A stretch of 64,000 nt of DNA from Minisyncoccota bacterium (GTDB taxonomy: Bacteria; Patescibacteriota; Minisyncoccia; Phycocordibacterales; UBA918). A model generated the notes under the pieces. The model was not told the DNA's origin and made no database searches. It was given only the letters and a program-made list of their open reading frames with translations. Each line of letters opens with the position of its first letter. Position 1 is the stretch's first letter. The stretch is from NCBI GenBank assembly GCA_018062385.1, contig JAGOSI010000001.1, forward strand, positions 5,904 through 69,903, in the 5' to 3' direction. Shown piece after piece: positions 21,360-38,368 of the stretch. A program made the translations under genes and the position numbers.

Positions 21360-22721
21360 ATGAAATCAACTTTAGGTTTTTATGGAGGTGTCGGCTCAGT
21401 TACAGGAGCAAACTTCATGCTCGATACCGGTGAATTGGCGATTTTGGTAGATTGCGGATTGGTGCAGGGGGATAAATTTGCCATGAATAAAAACGCTGAG
21501 GCATTTGTTTATGATCCAAAAGTAATAGATGTGCTACTAGTGACACATGCTCATGCCGATCATATTGGGCGAATCCCAAAATTGGTTCGCGATGGATTCT
21601 CTGGAAAAATTTACAGCACTACTCCGACTAAAGAACTGGCGGGAGTAATGATGCGTGACGCGCTTAAGGTTATGCAATATGAAGCCAAGAGATTTGGACA
21701 GGAGGTCTTATATAAAGAGGAGGATATCGACATGGCTTTGAGATTGTGGCAGGCCGTAGAATACGAAGATAAGTTTACACTTGGTAAGGATATTGAAGCT
21801 TGGTATACCGATGCTGGGCATATTTTAGGCTCAGGTATGGTGCATTTAGTGCGCGGTGATAAAAAGATCGTTTTCACTGGAGATGTGGGTAATATCCCTC
21901 AGCCTCTTTTGCGGGCGCCTGTTATTCCTAAAGACTATGATTATTTGGTGATGGAAAGTGTGTATGGAGATAGGCTACATGAGGAAGTAGAAGAGCGAAC
22001 TGCGCTTTTGCGTCATTATATTGAAGACACTAAAGCCAAAAATGGTACTTTGATTATTCCGGCTTTTTCATTAGAGCGAACACAATCTATGTTGTTTGAA
22101 ATCAATAATATGGTGGAAGCTCACGATATTGAGCCAATACCCGTTTTCCTTGATTCACCACTTGCTATTACTGTAACTGACACTTATCGTAAATATACTA
22201 ATTATTTACGACCAGAAATTCAGAATCAAATAAAAAAGGGAGATGATATTTTTGACTTCTCTGGTCTAAAGTTCACTCACTCCATTAAAGATTCAGAAGC
22301 AATCAATCGCCAAAAGGGAGCCAAAATTATTATTGCTGGCTCGGGCATGAGTCACGGTGGGAGAATTTTACGTCACGAGAAGGAATATCTAGATAATCCA
22401 AGCACCACTCTCTTATTGGTCGGTTATCAATCAGTTGGAAGTATTGGACGTTTGCTTCAAGATGGTGCCAGAAGCCTGGTGATTGATGGTGAGAAGGTGA
22501 AAATAAAAGCTCAGATTGCAATGATCAGAGGTTTCTCTGGTCACGCTGATCGCGATCAGTTGATTGAGCTAGTGGCACATGGTGGCCACAAAGCCAAGCA
22601 GGTGTTTGTTGTTATGGGGGAGGAGCGATCAGCTTTGTTCTTGACTCAAAGATTGCATGATTATTTGGGTATTAATGCCGTGGCACCAGATTTAAATCAG
22701 GAAGTAGTAATTGATTTTTAA
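21360..22721 (+). CDS. beta-CASP family metallo-beta-lactamase fold ribonuclease (TTHA0252/RNase J-like)
   Basis: HAHADHIGRIP (HxHxDH), later D and H motifs, C-terminal RNA-metabolising MBL domain; 453 aa. Confidence 0.7.
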   Translation: MKSTLGFYGGVGSVTGANFMLDTGELAILVDCGLVQGDKFAMNKNAEAFVYDPKVIDVLLVTHAHADHIGRIPKLVRDGFSGKIYSTTPTKELAGVMMRDALKVMQYEAKRFGQEVLYKEEDIDMALRLWQAVEYEDKFTLGKDIEAWYTDAGHILGSGMVHLVRGDKKIVFTGDVGNIPQPLLRAPVIPKDYDYLVMESVYGDRLHEEVEERTALLRHYIEDTKAKNGTLIIPAFSLERTQSMLFEINNMVEAHDIEPIPVFLDSPLAITVTDTYRKYTNYLRPEIQNQIKKGDDIFDFSGLKFTHSIKDSEAINRQKGAKIIIAGSGMSHGGRILRHEKEYLDNPSTTLLLVGYQSVGSIGRLLQDGARSLVIDGEKVKIKAQIAMIRGFSGHADRDQLIELVAHGGHKAKQVFVVMGEERSALFLTQRLHDYLGINAVAPDLNQEVVIDF

Positions 22722-22796: not shown

Positions 22797-23141
22797 TTAC
22801 TTTACGCTCTCTACTAAGCGAGTGAAAGCTTCTGGGCGATCCTTGGCCATAGTGGCTAGAATTTTGCGATCAATCTCGATGTTCTTAGTTTTCAATTGAT
22901 TGATGAAGCGGCTGTACTTTAGACCAAATGCCATTAGGGCAGCATTGATGCGTACTGTCCAAAGACGACGGAAGTCATTCTTTTTATCCTTACGATGGGC
23001 AAAAGCGTGTAGTTGAGCGTGATAAATAGCTTCACGCGCCACTCGCTTTTTCTTTGATCGTTGTAGACGGTAACCCTTAACTTGGTCAAGGATATTGCGG
23101 CGTCTTTTTTGGGCCATTAGGCCTCCTTTTACTCTTGCCAT
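22797..23141 (-). CDS. rplT: 50S ribosomal protein L20
   Basis: MARVKGG..AQKRRRNILDQVKGYRL... Confidence 0.95.
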   Translation of the reverse strand: MARVKGGLMAQKRRRNILDQVKGYRLQRSKKKRVAREAIYHAQLHAFAHRKDKKNDFRRLWTVRINAALMAFGLKYSRFINQLKTKNIEIDRKILATMAKDRPEAFTRLVESVK

Positions 23142-23171: not shown

Positions 23172-23363
23172 CTACGCACCGGTCTTAGGAAGAAAACGGC
23201 GAGTAATACGCTTGCTGAGGGTAAGAAGCTGTGTACGCTTGCGACGTAGGCGTTGTTGCCCAGTTTGACGAGCGTTGAAGTGGTTTTGCCCAGGCTTACG
23301 AGCTACCAATTTACCGTTCTTAGTTACTTTTATGCGTTTCGTGAATGATTTATTTGTCTTCAT
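23172..23363 (-). CDS. rpmI: 50S ribosomal protein L35
   Basis: MKTNKSFTKRIKVTKNGKLVARKPGQNHFNARQ... Confidence 0.9.
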   Translation of the reverse strand: MKTNKSFTKRIKVTKNGKLVARKPGQNHFNARQTGQQRLRRKRTQLLTLSKRITRRFLPKTGA

Positions 23364-23438: not shown

Positions 23439-24104
23439 CTAAATCATACCGGCTTCTAGGAAGTCGTCAAGGTTCTTTTTCTTTGATTTATTGATACCGG
23501 TTTCGCTTGGAACTGAAGCTTTTTTATTTTCTACCTTAACAATCTTTGGTAGTTGAGTTTTTGGTTGTCCGGCCACACGCTCAATGGTGATGGTAAAGCC
23601 TTTTGGGCTTCTTTTCATCTCGTCAGCCACTTTATATTCGGTAGGAATGATCTTCATAAAGCGATCTAGCCTTTCTTTTAGGAAACCTTCTTCCATGAAC
23701 TTATAGCGTCCCCAGAGGAACAAGTCGATTTTTACTCGATGACCCTCTTCCAGCCATTCAGCGGTTCTTTTAGCCTTTAATTGCTGATCGTGTTCACCAG
23801 TGCCGATTTTAACCTGCACGCTCTTGGTTTCTGTGACATGAGACTTAGCCTTTACTTCTCGAGCCTTACGGCCAGTTTGATAGCGAAATTTACCAAAGTC
23901 CATGATCTTGGCTACGGGCGGGTTGGCGTTTGGGGAAATTTCAATTAGATCAAGACTGTGTGCCTCGGCGATCTTCATGGCTTCAGCCACGGTTAAAAGA
24001 CCCAGGTTTTCACCTTCTGGCCCCACGACTCGCAATTGCTCCGCTTTAATCGCATGGTTAATGCGAGTTTTAATTTGTTTTTGGACCGAAAATTGTTTTG
24101 ACAA
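23439..24104 (-). CDS. infC: translation initiation factor IF-3 with C-terminal Lys-rich extension
   Basis: IF3 N- and C-domains (…AIKAEQLRVVGPEGENLGLL…, …KSVQVKIGTGEHDQQ…); infC-rpmI-rplT order. Confidence 0.9.
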   Translation of the reverse strand: MSKQFSVQKQIKTRINHAIKAEQLRVVGPEGENLGLLTVAEAMKIAEAHSLDLIEISPNANPPVAKIMDFGKFRYQTGRKAREVKAKSHVTETKSVQVKIGTGEHDQQLKAKRTAEWLEEGHRVKIDLFLWGRYKFMEEGFLKERLDRFMKIIPTEYKVADEMKRSPKGFTITIERVAGQPKTQLPKIVKVENKKASVPSETGINKSKKKNLDDFLEAGMI

Positions 24105-24323: not shown

Positions 24324-24962
24324 ATGCCAAGAGTAAGTGCTAAAGATATAAGTGAAGAATCTAAGCGTGCCCCACGTCGTCAGGTGGTGCGAAAAGCCTC
24401 CTCACCTCGAGTTAGAAAAACCACAGCTACGGGAATACCGAAAGATCGAGTGGTAGAGGAGATTAATGCTCCTGTGCGTAGAGCGCCTACTAATGTATCT
24501 GATAATAAATCCCGTGTTCGTTTTTCTCGCAAAACTATTATCTTCAGTGGTGCTTTTGTGGCAGTGTTGGCTACTTCTGTTTGGATTGGTACTGCCGATA
24601 ATGGTCAAATAAATGTAGCGTCAAAAATTGAAGAACGTAATAATCAAATCGCTAATGGCGAATTTACTGCCGACAATTCTTCTGGGGTCAATGGTGGTCA
24701 AATGATTCCCGTACAAAATAGCGCACCTACTGTACCAAATGGTGGCCTAAAGGGGCGAGGAGTTGGTACTGCATCAGTAAGTCAGCAGGCAGCTGTTGTT
24801 GCGGCTGAAGATGCTAATGCTTCTAGTACTGAAGATATCAGTACTAGCACAGAGGAGATAAATAATAATGAGGCGAGTGAGACTAATACTGAAAGTGCAG
24901 ATGGTGTCAATTCAGATCTTGGGGGAGAAGAAGGAGAGGCTGCGGTTGGTTCGGAAATTTAG
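24324..24962 (+). CDS. hypothetical protein, basic N-terminus, one TM helix, Ser/Thr/Asn/Glu-rich low-complexity tail
   Basis: 212-aa ORF; single hydrophobic helix IIFSGAFVAVLATSVWIG. Confidence 0.45.
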   Translation: MPRVSAKDISEESKRAPRRQVVRKASSPRVRKTTATGIPKDRVVEEINAPVRRAPTNVSDNKSRVRFSRKTIIFSGAFVAVLATSVWIGTADNGQINVASKIEERNNQIANGEFTADNSSGVNGGQMIPVQNSAPTVPNGGLKGRGVGTASVSQQAAVVAAEDANASSTEDISTSTEEINNNEASETNTESADGVNSDLGGEEGEAAVGSEI

Positions 24963-24976
24963 GATTAAGTTAAACT

Positions 24977-25010
24977 AAAAGCGCCGGCACGAAGTGCCGG
25001 CGCTTTTTTG
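24977..25010. terminator. Bidirectional terminator (gcgccggcac-gaa-gtgccggcgc) between 24324 gene and SET gene
   Basis: 10-bp GC stem with A-run and T-run flanks. Confidence 0.75.
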
Positions 25011-25016
25011 TTTGAT

Positions 25017-25436
25017 TTATACTTCTTTCGTTTTTTTCTCGAGACAGGCCGTACATTTACAATTGTCTTTACCAATCAGTTCATTAAAGTAGAATTTTCC
25101 GTAATTGTAAGTTAATTCTTCACCAGATTTAATGTTTCTCTTGGCATAAATATAAATATGTTCTTCCTCGTCATCTAGTTCTGGATAGCTATTTGGTTTG
25201 CAAGAATGATTGATATAGCGAGCTAAATTATCGCGTCCTTTGCCGTCGATGGTCCATTCATTATTTAGTTCAAATAAATATTTTCCACCACGCTTATTGG
25301 CTTCCTCTTCAGTAATTTTTTCGCCAGTGTACTCAATAATCATTTCACCTTTTTTAAAGTCGCGTCGAGCAAATAATCCAAGACCACTTTGACTCTTTTT
25401 GGTTTGCACATTTTCATTTTTCATAGGTGACAACAT
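25017..25436 (-). CDS. SET domain protein (putative protein-lysine methyltransferase) with post-SET Cys cluster
   Basis: GLGLFARRDFKKGEMIIEYTGE...ARYINHSCKPN...GEELTYNY, then CKCTAC. Confidence 0.75.
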   Translation of the reverse strand: MLSPMKNENVQTKKSQSGLGLFARRDFKKGEMIIEYTGEKITEEEANKRGGKYLFELNNEWTIDGKGRDNLARYINHSCKPNSYPELDDEEEHIYIYAKRNIKSGEELTYNYGKFYFNELIGKDNCKCTACLEKKTKEV

Positions 25437-25591
25437 TATAATTGACCCAGTGGTTTTGAACAGTGTATAAAAAATAATTTAGGGGAAATTTGTTATTATG
25501 TGTCTATGAATAGAACTCTTCGGGGGAAGTTGGAAATACTAAGCTCAGTTGTGTTGAGAGAGGAAAGAGGAAATCATTTTTAAATTAATTT

Positions 25592-26779
25592 ATGTCTACT
25601 ATTCTTATTATCAACCCTGGGAGTTCTTCAAAAAAAATTACCCTCTACAAAGATGATATCAAGCTCATGGATACTTCGGTTGAGGCCGGAGCTGATGGTT
25701 ATAATGTGTGTACCACTGTTAAGGGTGTGCAACAACAGTGTCTGCCGGTCAATCGTCTACGTTTCAATGATTCCTTGGCAGATTTTCTTAAACAAGCGGT
25801 GGAATCAAAAAACCTTGATAATCTAATGGAAATAAAAACCGTAGCACTTAGAGTTATTGCGCCCGGAACTTTCTTTCAGAGTCATCGAGAATTGAATGCA
25901 GAATATTTACAAAACTTGCAAGAATCTGAAAGTTTGGCTCCTCTCCATATCTCACCCCTACTAAAGGAAATTTCTTTACTAAAAAAAATATTACCTCAGG
26001 CTAGACTATTTGGTTTGTCTGACACAGCTTTTCATCAGACGATCCCCGATTATATTCGTAATTATTCTCTACCGACTGCTGAAGCTGAAAAGTATGATCT
26101 CTACCGTTTCGGTTGTCATGGGTTGTCTGTGGCTTCGGTGGTGGAGCGATTGCATTCGGTAGTAGGGGTAGATCCGGCTAGGGTAATTGTTTGTCATATT
26201 GGGAGCGGGGTAAGTGTGACGGCAGTAAAAGGAGGAAAAAGCTTTGATACATCTGCCGGCTATGTACCTGAAACTGGTCTCATAATTGGGAGTAAGGCAG
26301 GAGATTTAGATAGTGGAGCCCTATTAGCTCTAATGAAGAAACAGCACCTAAAACCAATCGACACCGATAATTACCTTCAAACTCAAGGCGGATTATTTGG
26401 TCTTTCAGGGGAAATTGACTTGCGTCTATTGTTGGAGCGGAAGGTTAAAGGTGATTTGGTTGCAATTAAAACGCTAGATAGTTTTGTCTATCAGATCAAA
26501 AAGAAAATTGGATCTTTTATGACCGGAATGGGTGGCGTGGATCTCTTGGTTTTTACCGCCACCGCTGGCGAACGGAGTCCAGCCTTAAGGTCTATGATTA
26601 CTGCTGAATTGTCCGATCTCGGCATTGCACTTGATACTGAAAAGAATGATTTATGTATTGGTAAGAATGGGGTGATTAGTCAGGTGGGGTCTTTGGTCAA
26701 AGTTGCTGTAATCAAAAGTGATGAGACGAGTGAGATAATGAGAATTCTAAAACCAGTAAAAACCACAGTGACTTATTAG
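25592..26779 (+). CDS. ackA: acetate/propionate kinase family protein
   Basis: ILIINPGSSSKK, FGCHGLSVASV, HIGSGVSVTAVKGGKSFDTSAGYVPETGLIIGSKAGDLD match ASKHA acetate kinase motifs. Confidence 0.7.
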   Translation: MSTILIINPGSSSKKITLYKDDIKLMDTSVEAGADGYNVCTTVKGVQQQCLPVNRLRFNDSLADFLKQAVESKNLDNLMEIKTVALRVIAPGTFFQSHRELNAEYLQNLQESESLAPLHISPLLKEISLLKKILPQARLFGLSDTAFHQTIPDYIRNYSLPTAEAEKYDLYRFGCHGLSVASVVERLHSVVGVDPARVIVCHIGSGVSVTAVKGGKSFDTSAGYVPETGLIIGSKAGDLDSGALLALMKKQHLKPIDTDNYLQTQGGLFGLSGEIDLRLLLERKVKGDLVAIKTLDSFVYQIKKKIGSFMTGMGGVDLLVFTATAGERSPALRSMITAELSDLGIALDTEKNDLCIGKNGVISQVGSLVKVAVIKSDETSEIMRILKPVKTTVTY

Positions 26780-26781
26780 TT

Positions 26782-28086
26782 ATGTCCAAAAAAGAAGATA
26801 ATAAGTACAACTCAATCGCTGTTGCTCAAGCGGTTTTCGTATTTTTTATTTTATTTGGTTTATTGATAGGCCTGGTGTTCTACTATGATTTTTCTGGTAT
26901 CAATCTCGGAGCCTTGGCGTTTTTAATTGCTGTGACTTGTGCAGTGCTTTTGGCTAAAAATATTTATGATCTAGCTCGTGAAGAAGAAAAGACAGTTAAA
27001 ATTGCTAAAAGATTATCTGAGGATGTGGTTAGTAATCCTTCTCAGAAATTATTCGCTGAAGTTTTCAATAATAGTCCAATCGCTTATCTAATTCTCGATA
27101 GTGAAGGTAATATTATTACCTCAAATAAATCAGCTGTGAGACTATTGGGTCGTTCGGCGATGAGGCTCGATAAGACTCAGTTTTTTACTTGCATTGGTGC
27201 TCATTCTGAACATTTGATTTTGATTAAGGAGAAGTTCCGTAACGGTGTGATTGTCAGTGAAGAAGAAATTGAAATTAATCGTGACGGAAGCTCTGGCTGG
27301 GCGACGATGTCGATTTTTCCTTTCACAGATTATGCTAATCAACGCATGAGTTTGGTAACACTCTTGGATATTACCAGACAAAAAGAAATAGATACCGCTA
27401 AATCAGAGTTTGTTTCTTTAGCTTCGCATCAACTACGAACACCGATTGCCGGTATGCGTTGGAGTGCTGAGCTGCTCTTGATGGACGGTGCAGAATCTTT
27501 AAGTAAACAACAGCGTCGTTATGCTGATCGGTTGTTGTCTAATGTCCAGAGGATGGCAAATTTGGTAGATGATTTTCTTCAGGTCTCTAGGTTTGACCTT
27601 GGGACAAGAATTTTACAACCAGAAGTGGTGGATATTCAAAAGTTAATCAATGATGTGGTTGGTGAACAATCTCTAATGACTAGTAGTAAGCAGATCGTAG
27701 TGGAAAGACATTTTGATGACAGCGTGAGCGAGATTGTGACCGATGAAAAACTTTTAAGGATGATTGTTACCAATCTATACAATAACGCTATAAAGTATTC
27801 GCATAATGGAGGGGTGGTTGAAATTACCTATTTCCGAGAGGGGGAGGATTTGGTTATTGAAATTAAAGATTATGGTATGGGTATACCGGTAGAAGATCAG
27901 TCACGTATTTTCACTAAAGTGTTTAGGGCTAGTAATGCTCTTCGTGAAGTTCCGGACGGTACCGGACTTGGGCTTTATATTGTAAAAAAAGCCGCTCAGA
28001 CCTTGCGTGGCCGAGTGACTTTTAATTCCAGTGAAAATGTTGGTACTACCTTTACTGTAGTGATACCTCTGACTTTGTCTGTGTAG
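26782..28086 (+). CDS. sensor histidine kinase (2 TM, PAS-like, HisKA, HATPase_c)
   Basis: H-box SHQLRTPIAGMRW, N-box NLYNNAIKYS, G-boxes DYGMGIP / GTGLGLYIV. Confidence 0.85.
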   Translation: MSKKEDNKYNSIAVAQAVFVFFILFGLLIGLVFYYDFSGINLGALAFLIAVTCAVLLAKNIYDLAREEEKTVKIAKRLSEDVVSNPSQKLFAEVFNNSPIAYLILDSEGNIITSNKSAVRLLGRSAMRLDKTQFFTCIGAHSEHLILIKEKFRNGVIVSEEEIEINRDGSSGWATMSIFPFTDYANQRMSLVTLLDITRQKEIDTAKSEFVSLASHQLRTPIAGMRWSAELLLMDGAESLSKQQRRYADRLLSNVQRMANLVDDFLQVSRFDLGTRILQPEVVDIQKLINDVVGEQSLMTSSKQIVVERHFDDSVSEIVTDEKLLRMIVTNLYNNAIKYSHNGGVVEITYFREGEDLVIEIKDYGMGIPVEDQSRIFTKVFRASNALREVPDGTGLGLYIVKKAAQTLRGRVTFNSSENVGTTFTVVIPLTLSV

Positions 28087-28100
28087 CCTTAATAAACTCT

Positions 28101-28472
28101 CTAGGCCAATTCTTTCTCTACTCGCAACACGATATCGCTAATGCTGGAACGGGATTTATGAATAACATCTTCAGTCTTGATGTTGTTGTCTATCATATTT
28201 TGTTCGGATAGATCTGAAGCAGTGATAATTAAAATACGAACATCTTTACCCCAAGAATCGTTTTTTAAATGATTAATAATTTCTATACCATCCATATCTG
28301 GTAGGCGTAAGTCGAGGAGAATTAGGTCGGGTTTTTCGGTTAAGGCTAGGTCTAATCCAGTTTTACCATTGTTGGCTTTAAGGGGGCGATAACCCTTTAA
28401 TAACAATACATCTTCTAAAGAGTCAGCAAGATCAGTTGAGTCCTCAATAATCAAGATCGTTTTTTGTAACAT
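28101..28472 (-). CDS. single-domain response regulator (CheY-like receiver only)
   Basis: ILIIEDSTDLADSL...DLILLDLRLPDMDGIEI; 123 aa with no output domain. Confidence 0.8.
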   Translation of the reverse strand: MLQKTILIIEDSTDLADSLEDVLLLKGYRPLKANNGKTGLDLALTEKPDLILLDLRLPDMDGIEIINHLKNDSWGKDVRILIITASDLSEQNMIDNNIKTEDVIHKSRSSISDIVLRVEKELA

Positions 28473-33056: not shown

Positions 33057-33453
33057 CGGTGGAGATGGCGAGAATTGAACCCGCGTCCGAATGAGGGTGT
33101 CTTTATGAGTCTACAGTGTGTAGTTTCACTTTAGGTTTAAACTATTTAGCTATAAGAGAAACCAAACACTAAATAATCGAGTTTCAAGAATTTGAGTTTA
33201 CTACTGAAACGACATAGCAAACCGTAATCTCATGGCTATTTTACCCACACTCCTTTATGAGATATAGAGGAGGTGAGCATCGCTACGGCCTGCGTAAATT
33301 TACGCTAGAGCGGGAGCGAATCCAAACGCGTTAGCGTAAGGACTTGGTATGCTTTTCTTTGCACATACAAATTGCTCGAGTTTTGAGAGAGTCTCGAGCA
33401 GCTCTCACACTGCACACAAAGAGCACGACTCACCGTCGATGCCTAGCATCCCC
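33057..33453 (-). ncRNA. ssrA: tmRNA (transfer-messenger RNA, one-piece)
   Basis: Minus strand: 5' GGGGATGCTAGGCATCGACGG... and 3' ...GGACGCGGGTTCAATTCTCGCCATCTCCACC (T-arm plus acceptor; CCA not fully encoded); candidate tag frame ...GCT AAC GCG TTT GGA TTC GCT CCC GCT CTA GCG TAA (ANAFGFAPALA*). Confidence 0.9.
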
Positions 33454-37921: not shown

Positions 37922-38368
37922 CTACTGACTTTTCAAAATGCGTTCGATATCGCGCTTGGTGTCTCGCTCCTTTAACTTCTCGCGTTTGTCGGCTTTTTTC
38001 TTACCACGCGCTAAAGCGATTTGGAGCTTGATATGTCTTTTTTCACTGTACCACTTCACGGCGACAATAGTCAAACCTGGTTGTTCGCCGTAGCGTTTTA
38101 GTTCGGCCAGCTGTTTCTTTGTGAGGAGGAGTTTGCGAGTTCTTTCTGGGTCATATTTTTTTGGGGCGTTGGCAACTTGATAAGGACTGATCGAAGCACC
38201 TAAAAGCCAAGCTTCATCACCGCGAATCACCACGTAGGCACCGTTTAGGCTAGCTTTGCCAGCTCGTAAAGCTTTTACTTCAGTGCCAAGTAAAACCACC
38301 CCCGCTTCGAAAGTTTCAAGCAGTTCAAAATCAAAGGTGACTTTCTTGTTGCGGATAAAGTCGGTCAT
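37922..38368 (-). CDS. smpB: SsrA-binding protein SmpB
   Basis: ...FELLETFEAGVVLLGTEVKALRAGKASLNGAYVVIRGDEAWLLGASISPY...KWYSEKRHIKL... Confidence 0.95.
   Translation of the reverse strand: MTDFIRNKKVTFDFELLETFEAGVVLLGTEVKALRAGKASLNGAYVVIRGDEAWLLGASISPYQVANAPKKYDPERTRKLLLTKKQLAELKRYGEQPGLTIVAVKWYSEKRHIKLQIALARGKKKADKREKLKERDTKRDIERILKSQ

Follow-up and report, generated by a model that had tools for sequence, protein, structure and literature searches.

The DNA analysed here (the window) is a stretch of 64,000 nucleotides from contig JAGOSI010000001.1 (positions 5,904 to 69,903, forward strand). According to the open reading frame (ORF) list of the window, its minus strand carries an intact ORF at 25017..25436, the product of which is a compact SET-domain protein. 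All residue numbers follow the numbering of this 139-amino-acid ORF. The gene and its elements are as follows.

25017..25436, minus strand: maximal SET ORF, 139 amino acids plus stop codon (ORF list and sequence).
25017..25424, minus strand: likeliest SET coding sequence from the second ATG at 25424 (MKNENV...), 135 amino acids plus stop codon (homologue N-termini, gene calls and -10-like hexamer).
25098..25385, minus strand: SET core, residues 18-113 (PF00856 match; AlphaFold2 model with Foldseek matches to MLL1 and MLL4 at a TM score of about 0.7).
25377..25385, minus strand: GxG motif G18-L19-G20, predicted part of the S-adenosylmethionine (SAM) binding site (G18 and G20 invariant; aligns to G-R-G of MLL1).
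25200..25211, minus strand: N76, H77, S78 and C79, predicted to contribute to SAM binding, the pseudoknot and the first zinc ligand (N76, H77 and C79 invariant; aligns to NHSC of MLL1).
25101..25118, minus strand: stretch E107-Y112 (E107, Y110 and Y112 invariant; aligned to 2w5y).
25044..25061, minus strand: post-SET-like cluster C126-K-C128-T-A-C131 (three Cys invariant in 36 homologues; predicted zinc site with C79).
25435..25440, minus strand: perfect, -10-like TATAAT, which overlaps the first ATG and lies 10 nt 5' of the second (25424).
24977..25007, both strands: bidirectional intrinsic-terminator hairpin with 14 pairs, 9 of them G-C (promoter/terminator scan).

Pfam PF00856 matched the ORF with 101.1 bits (gathering score 22.4, E 5.5e-29) over model positions 1-105 of 105 and was the sole Pfam domain in the product of 135-139 amino acids. 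A phmmer search against all chains of the Protein Data Bank (PDB) returned 121 distinct sequences at E<=1e-3. The top matches were KMT2D (2.7e-21) and the SET plus post-SET region of MLL1, with E values of 2.7e-21 to 1e-20, and these alignments extended into the Cys tail of the query. An AlphaFold2 model was built from 36 homologues, with a mean pLDDT (predicted local distance difference test) of 75.9 and a pTM (predicted template modelling score) of 0.69. Comparison of the model with the PDB using Foldseek yielded 394 matches at E<=1e-3, and all 50 listed were SET domains. Among the matches listed, the SET domains of MLL1 and MLL4 were the best (TM 0.64-0.71, 35-39% identity); the minimal viral vSET was also present. 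By these matches the modelled fold corresponds to the SET (beta-clip/pseudoknot) fold. Profile, motifs and fold together identify the protein as a genuine SET superfamily member. The original prediction of a compact bacterial SET-domain protein was thus borne out, also by residue conservation, and the outcomes that it had named as refuting, a sub-threshold PF00856 match or another beta-rich fold, were clearly not encountered.

The hallmark motifs on which this prediction had been based (GxG, YINHSC.PN, GEEL.Y.Y and CKCTAC) were all read in the translation, namely GxG at residues 18-20 (S-G-L-G-L-F), RYINHSCKPN at 73-82, GEELTYNY at 105-112 and CKCTAC at 126-131. The codons of N76-C79 (25200-25211) and C126-C131 (25044-25061) were confirmed against the raw DNA. 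Invariant in the 36 homologues were G18, G20, Y36, Y53, F55, N76, H77, C79, E107, Y110, Y112, C126, C128 and C131. In this alignment, all query residues known to bind SAM or to line the lysine channel in MLL-type SET domains were present and invariant. The query was aligned with MLL1 (2W5Y), for which the numbering was obtained by counting back from the C-terminal N3969 and agrees with the chain indices. Y36, Y53 and F55 correspond to Y3858, Y3883 and F3885, and N76, H77, C79, Y110 and Y112 to N3906, H3907, C3909, Y3942 and Y3944. In MLL1 the Phe/Tyr switch is Y3942; its SET domain on its own monomethylates, and the Y3942F variant trimethylates (PMC3585878). Since Y110 aligns to this residue, the invariant Tyr at the switch suggests a mono- or dimethylating enzyme. 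An acidic hairpin (P-E-L-D-D-E-E-E-H, residues 85-93) is also conserved, with E86 and E91 invariant, and the isoelectric point of the protein is near neutral.

A protein without catalytic activity that serves as scaffold or reader with a SET fold, or an enzyme for a substrate other than protein, is extremely improbable in view of these residues. Such a role would fit the non-canonical post-SET spacing described below and the SET-I region, which is about 8-9 residues shorter than in MLL1, but the SAM-binding and lysine-channel residues are complete and invariant across the family. Pseudo-enzymes normally lose catalytic residues. In addition, the minimal vSET, which lacks any post-SET segment, is active according to Manzur et al. 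(2003) as cited in PMC10117894.

The post-SET cysteine cluster of the original prediction was recovered, though not in canonical form: three invariant Cys are located in the tail, but their spacing in the query and its clade is C-x-C-x2-C and not the canonical C-x-C-x4-C. The canonical spacing is found in MLL1 and in a sister prokaryotic clade with sequences from Pseudoxanthomonas, Verrucomicrobia, Woesearchaeota and two of the three Methanosarcinales loci. Four candidate metal ligands (C79, C126, C128 and C131) are retained and invariant in the 36 homologues. In six more distant homologues from the Candidate Phyla Radiation (CPR) the last tail Cys is exchanged for His (C-x-C-x2-H; loci L026, L028, L029, L034, L049 and L054), the His-ending tails reading CRCEKH, CRCSSH, CRCKKH, CQCVVH and CRCPKH. 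This exchange keeps a ligand and therefore fits position 131 being a metal ligand. From this pattern a single zinc site is predicted, with C79, C126, C128 and C131 (or the His in its place) as ligands and with a shorter loop, which would close the lysine channel. The C-x-C-x2-C/H tail would be a naturally occurring, more compact version of the post-SET zinc site. In a third group (L063, L069, L070 and L078), a C-x-C-x3-C tail was observed.

The ORF is present exactly as it had been described, but translation probably starts at the second ATG (25424), giving 135 amino acids. Most homologues begin at the residue that matches the second Met. The exact 135-amino-acid product was called on 19 contigs from several independent samples with identical neighbours on all of them, and no record of the 139-amino-acid form was present in the gene-call collection. 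A TATA(A/C)T hexamer was located 6-11 nt 5' of the SET start in 15 of 15 loci examined from clade A, the clade of the window. The start was taken as 25424 on the basis of the homologue N-termini, the 135-amino-acid gene calls and the placement of the TATAAT or TATA(A/C)T element. The mRNA may be leaderless or carry a very short leader; this is proposed with reserve because no convincing -35 element was found upstream of the TATAAT. The hairpin at 24977-25007 is common to the SET gene and the convergent gene at 24324-24962, with a T-rich tail after the plus-strand copy and a weaker one after the minus-strand copy. By these signals the SET gene appears to be monocistronic, with its own terminator and -10 box. 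In the divergent intergenic region between SET and ackA (or xfp), a conserved ACTGT(T/G)(C/T)AAAA motif was observed (about 25455-25468 in the window, equivalents in L001-L013), its distance to the SET -10 box being variable. The motif may represent an operator or, for a promoter on the opposite strand, the -35 region (reverse complement TTTTGAACAGT).

The organism is a CPR bacterium of the Paceibacteria type. Named SET homologues were from Candidatus Nomurabacteria and Paceibacterota, and the closest genome was 'Parcubacteria bacterium OLB19' (90% identity). GC content at the locus is about 0.39 and normal. An indexed protein search returned 1,117 SET relatives at E<=1e-5. The best 120 of these, from separate 90%-identity clusters, showed 66-97% identity and lengths of 115-205 amino acids, most of them 129-145. 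HMMER was run over 1.84 billion 50%-identity representatives and gave 12,564 SET relatives at E<=1e-3 but just 33 at E<=1e-30; the tight family therefore collapses into few 50% clusters inside a very large superfamily.

The position of the SET gene is kept in 15 related loci (L001-L014 and L030). Mean amino-acid identity to the window was determined over the nine loci holding all markers and was 68% for SET, as compared to 96% for L35, 88% for L20 and 72% each for IF3 and the RNase-J-like protein. Below SET were the histidine kinase (52%), AckA (50%), the response regulator (46%) and the membrane protein neighbour (35%). Against L001, the closest genome, dN/dS of SET was 0.038 (dN 0.052, dS 1.37), values for more distant pairs being saturated or undefined. 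In the CPR lineage SET is thus about as conserved as a translation factor (IF3), and in its own lineage it is inherited vertically under strong purifying constraint and not sporadically acquired. The original description of bacterial SET proteins as sporadic does not hold for this lineage, in which the gene is syntenic in at least 15 related CPR genomes.

A neighbour-joining tree was calculated from 80 loci and the window, with MLL1 and KMT2D as outgroups. The query was placed within a large, mostly CPR clade, as an ingroup relative to MLL1/KMT2D. The suggested check for a patchy distribution gave a divided result: recent transfer was not seen locally, but in the wider clade a few sequences labelled Alphaproteobacteria, Acidobacteria, Bdellovibrionales, Nitrospira and Cytophagaceae were interspersed. 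Some of the interspersed non-CPR genes, located on megabase contigs, are probably real transfers, and the SET genes of L015 and L017 look like parts of mis-binned CPR contigs. L015 ('Gammaproteobacteria', GC 0.39) and L017 ('Chitinivibrionales', 3.7-kb contig) carry CPR-type SET genes, which suggests mis-binning. The label 'Candidatus Saccharibacteria' of L002 and L003 looks wrong, since both loci are fully syntenic with the window and their ribosomal proteins are 87-97% identical to those encoded there. Taxon labels of TPA (third-party annotation) metagenome-assembled genomes are unreliable. Because peptides such as GEELTYNY served as seeds for the genome scan, loci beyond the close family are sampled with bias, and no prevalence was derived from them. 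Unusual architectures were a Methanosarcinales homologue (L068 324-1283, 320 amino acids) with a C-terminal part of about 150 amino acids that is flavodoxin-like by eye, and P0121 (264 amino acids) with two SET stretches in tandem.

Searches of PHROGs and PADLOC gave no phage or defence-system family match for SET. An origin from a phage or defence system was rejected in view of this result, the normal GC content and the stable synteny. Homologues are already labelled 'SET domain-containing protein' in public sources, and catalogues of bacterial SET genes date back to 2007 (PMC3980110). The gene itself is thus an unsurprising, already automatically annotated class member. In the literature collection searched, no paper dealt with SET proteins in CPR or Patescibacteria.

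The N-terminus is hydrophilic and without a hydrophobic stretch, in agreement with the earlier statement that a signal peptide is missing. Translation and Pfam scan revealed no signal peptide, no extension bearing a nuclear localization signal and no ankyrin or other accessory domain in the SET ORF. The target is probably intracellular. A host-directed, nucleomodulin-like effector exported by an episymbiotic CPR cell, in parallel to NUE, RomA/LegAS4, BtSET and BaSET, is very unlikely. CPR bacteria are commonly host-attached, which counts in its favour. Among bacterial SET proteins studied by experiment, secreted effectors are the majority (PMC10117894), and a weak partial NCBIfam match to the SET region of Legionella AnkI/LegAS4 was obtained. 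This match (NF043024) reached 41.6 bits against a cut-off of 550 and comprised the generic SET core only. The lack of a signal peptide and of accessory parts also speaks against an effector, and a dN/dS of about 0.04, IF3-like conservation and stable synteny are atypical of this class. CPR hosts are mostly prokaryotes without histones, and close homologues of the protein were also found in free-living phyla.

The protein is probably a stand-alone, cytoplasmic, SAM-dependent SET protein-lysine N-methyltransferase serving the bacterium's own physiology. Most likely it would be zinc-dependent and mono- or dimethylating, and would act on a conserved basic endogenous protein. In the proposed mechanism, SAM would bind in the pocket of G18-x-G20, Y53 and N76-H77, and the epsilon-amine of the target lysine would enter a narrow aromatic channel (Y36, F55, Y110 and Y112) on the opposite face of the pseudoknot. 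The short post-SET segment would fold over this channel, held by one zinc ion on C79, C126, C128 and C131. A single endogenous substrate, conserved, basic and abundant, is suggested by the acidic hairpin at residues 85-93, the near-neutral isoelectric point and a surface that has evolved very slowly throughout; this substrate would be associated with nucleic acids. Precedents for an endogenous basic substrate are Go1-SET, which methylates K37 of MC1-alpha in vitro (PMC3980110), and cpnSET, which methylates Hc1 in vitro (PMC10117894). Both point to nucleoid proteins, and a nucleoid or histone-like protein is tentatively suggested as substrate by analogy. A component of the translation apparatus, likewise proposed by analogy, is a somewhat doubtful candidate.

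The neighbouring genes were identified from Pfam labels on an identical contig and from the ORF calls of the window.

21360-22721, plus strand: beta-CASP metallo-beta-lactamase, RNase-J-like (Pfam label).
22797-23141, minus strand: rplT (Pfam label).
23172-23363, minus strand: rpmI (Pfam label).
23439-24104, minus strand: infC (Pfam label).
24324-24962, plus strand: 212-amino-acid single-pass membrane protein without Pfam match, convergent to SET and located between infC and SET.
25592-26779, plus strand: acetate kinase (ackA), divergent from SET.
26782-28086, plus strand: PAS/HisKA histidine kinase (Pfam label).
28101-28472, minus strand: response regulator (Pfam label).

The SET gene had been described as a lone gene between the infC-rpmI-rplT cluster and a divergent ackA. 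This is nearly right, but the convergent membrane-protein gene and the terminator intervene on the infC side. For the context survey, SET neighbours were clustered in the 80 genomic loci, and recurrent and flanking families were annotated. In clade A and in the divergent loci L014, L016 and L018 (55-57% identity), SET is located 5' of infC-rpmI-rplT and in the same orientation, a placement that persists where the opposite flank differs. In the independent clade B (L019, L021-L023 and L025), SET is found 5' of secE-nusG-rplK on the same strand, and in L024 nusG and rplK lie 5' of SET on the opposite strand. NusG of clade B was confirmed by Pfam, and rplK (L11) was assigned by reading the sequence. 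The convergent neighbour in L026 is the ribosome-biogenesis GTPase RsgA.

These positions argue for a refinement of the endogenous methyltransferase proposed above, in which a housekeeping enzyme would modify the translation or transcription-elongation apparatus (uL11, IF3, another ribosomal protein, NusG or EF-Tu). Its role would resemble that of the SET-domain Rkm enzymes in yeast or of the Rossmann-fold PrmA for L11 in other bacteria. The evolution of SET, as slow as that of IF3, and the methylation of uL11 by the yeast SET enzyme Rkm2 (PMC9387862) are in line with it. The refinement is nevertheless rather doubtful, since the genes are adjacent without forming an operon. In the window, a strong terminator and an opposite-strand gene separate SET from infC; in clade B, terminator-like hairpins and a separate conserved promoter-like element precede secE; and in L016 and L018 a structured spacer of about 120 nt lies between SET and infC. 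With terminators, promoter-like elements and spacers intervening, an operon of SET with infC or with secE-nusG-rplK was rejected. The clade B element (CTAGACTTTTC...TTTTCTGCTATA) was observed 5' of secE-nusG-rplK, in some loci after a terminator-like hairpin behind SET.

About eleven other CPR contexts were not related to translation and comprised HD, GIY-YIG, DsbA-like thioredoxin, NiFe hydrogenase, cupin, MscL, FAD oxidase and Pfam-less proteins. Translation-related contexts thus amount to three of about 14 independent ones, which is close to chance expectation for such small genomes and counts against the refinement. Stand-alone GIY-YIG genes (81-95 amino acids) adjoin SET in two unrelated CPR contexts (L020 3536-3823 and L027 6364-6609). 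The attempt to identify the substrate from context was dropped, as no universal partner occurred across the 80 loci, and because the neighbourhoods are heterogeneous the substrate class given above is a guess. Searches of the 64-kb window with tblastn for HU (E. coli), L11, NusG and phosphoketolase gave no match, which is uninformative for a sample of this size. A literature search on PrmA in CPR returned nothing relevant.

Two candidate substrates from the neighbourhood were discarded. The membrane protein at 24324-24962 has a basic, histone-tail-like cytoplasmic N-terminus with R-K-A-P-T in 12 of 13 orthologues. It was rejected as obligate target, since the window copy reads R-R-A-P-T and the protein is confined to clade A. 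Its extracytoplasmic part contains a conserved GQIDV...ERN...VPVQN...GGL pattern, and its C-terminus is acidic and Ser/Thr-rich. At the C-terminus of IF3 (23439-23580, minus strand, in the window), a Lys-rich extension of about 45 amino acids is present in all clade-A relatives and ends in the strongly conserved motif KSKKKxLDDLLExGMI. This extension was not supported as substrate: it is missing in L016 and L018 although SET adjoins infC there, which also speaks against a translation target.

In 14 related genomes a phosphoketolase gene (about 785 amino acids, XFP_N/XFP/XFP_C) is located between SET and ackA and overlaps the ackA start (L001 3570-5927, L004 3558-5909, L085 3552-5906). All three domains were seen in the phosphoketolase of the closed genome CP060227.1. 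In this species the gene is absent there, the gap between SET and ackA being 155 nt (25437-25591), and independent assemblies share this layout. No tblastn match to a phosphoketolase was obtained elsewhere in the 64-kb window. AckA is therefore without its usual acetyl-phosphate supplier at this locus. Elsewhere in the window, a tmRNA (transfer-messenger RNA) gene (Rfam, 105 bits) and an SmpB-like ORF were observed at 33057-33453 and 37922-38368, both on the minus strand and about 4.5 kb apart. The pair brackets an ABC-transporter ATPase, an FtsX-like permease and a GDSL-like lipase in the stretch of lowest GC content of the window (0.31-0.33).

The query was compared with characterized SET proteins. 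The KMT2/MLL enzymes (MLL1, 2W5Y; KMT2D, 4Z4P) gave the best matches in sequence (E 2.7e-21 to 1e-20, 35-39% identity) and fold (TM about 0.7). They share with the query GxG, Y, NHSC, ELTY(D/N)Y, the Tyr at the Phe/Tyr switch and a Cys-rich tail after the SET core. In contrast, the query is a single prokaryotic domain of 135 amino acids without SET-N flank, Win motif or WRAD-complex partners, and differs from MLL1 in the shorter SET-I and the C-x-C-x2-C tail. By its single domain, prokaryotic context and clade, it is not a member of the KMT2/Trithorax family. To our knowledge, histone H3 is not to be expected in this organism.

Go1-SET of Methanosarcina mazei is likewise a small stand-alone prokaryotic SET protein with a Cys tail, and Methanosarcinales homologues are 44-48% identical to the query. 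However, all three Methanosarcinales loci (L048, L068 and L069) group with the second major clade of the tree; SET-I is longer and the tail is C-x-C-x4-C in L048 and L068, and the L069 tail reads C-x-C-x3-C. The query is presumably not an orthologue of Go1-SET, which was assumed from taxonomy to be represented by these loci. MC1 is an archaeal protein and, as far as we know, not expected in CPR bacteria.

Among bacterial SET proteins, the chlamydial cpnSET methylates the organism's own histone-like Hc1 in vitro, and NUE is a nuclear effector secreted by a type III secretion system that acts on host histones, reportedly not on Hc1/Hc2 (PMC10117894). Chlamydial SET proteins are linked with SWIB-domain proteins, whereas neither a secretion system nor a SWIB context was seen at the query locus. 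RomA/LegAS4 (AnkI), BtSET and BaSET share the SET catalytic core with the query, AnkI/LegAS4 being its only NCBIfam match, but they are larger secreted effectors of host chromatin with accessory regions. The query lacks accessory domains and would not belong to the LegAS4/RomA type.

The vSET protein of Paramecium bursaria chlorella virus 1 (3KMA) resembles the query as a minimal SET of about 120 amino acids restricted to the catalytic core, and matched the AlphaFold2 model with a Foldseek E value of 1.4e-8 (TM 0.61/0.78). It lacks the post-SET Cys cluster, which is invariant in the query family. vSET works as a dimer. Its target is H3K27 of the eukaryotic host according to Manzur et al. (2003), as cited in PMC10117894. 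Yeast Rkm2 is comparable only by functional analogy, as a SET enzyme with a substrate in the translation apparatus, uL11 (PMC9387862). Enzymes of the Rkm2 type are larger, eukaryotic and not close sequence relatives; the top PDB and profile matches of the query were KMT2 and EZH, not LSMT-like proteins. The yeast Rkm enzymes belong to the Rubisco-LSMT (large-subunit methyltransferase)-like SET subfamily.

Several points weigh against the assignment as a zinc-dependent, mono- or dimethylating enzyme for an endogenous substrate. Confidence of the AlphaFold2 model for residues 111-139 is moderate (65-71), and the C-x-C-x2-C spacing deviates from the zinc-binding C-x-C-x4-C; both bear on zinc binding and channel closure. 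Lysine methyltransfer by this SET subfamily is itself a predicted activity. No consistent partner gene of SET was found in about 14 independent CPR contexts, which are heterogeneous and show clade-specific synteny alone. Export remains conceivable without a classical signal peptide in host-attached CPR bacteria. Finally, a Tyr at the switch position does not limit every SET enzyme, as Set1 and the MLL1 complex trimethylate (PMC3585878).

SET proteins are known mainly for their part in eukaryotic chromatin and as effectors secreted by bacteria, and endogenous roles in prokaryotes rest on two in-vitro cases, Go1-SET on MC1-alpha and cpnSET on Hc1. Here, a minimal SET protein is kept at a fixed position and with IF3-level conservation in numerous genomes of a lineage that is noted for its extreme loss of genes. 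This retention implies that the methyl-lysine mark may be important for a basic function of the CPR cell. In its widest form, which we regard as unlikely, the C-x-C-x2-C/H subfamily would be a core housekeeping lysine methyltransferase of Paceibacteria-type CPR, placing a constitutive mark on a universal component of gene expression (uL11, IF3, another ribosomal protein or the main nucleoid protein). If this were true, strong selection would maintain SET-based protein methylation in bacteria with genomes among the smallest of all, and this methylation could possibly replace the Rossmann-fold PrmA-type enzymes used by other bacteria. The identity of the substrate would bear on what SET enzymes did before eukaryotic chromatin.

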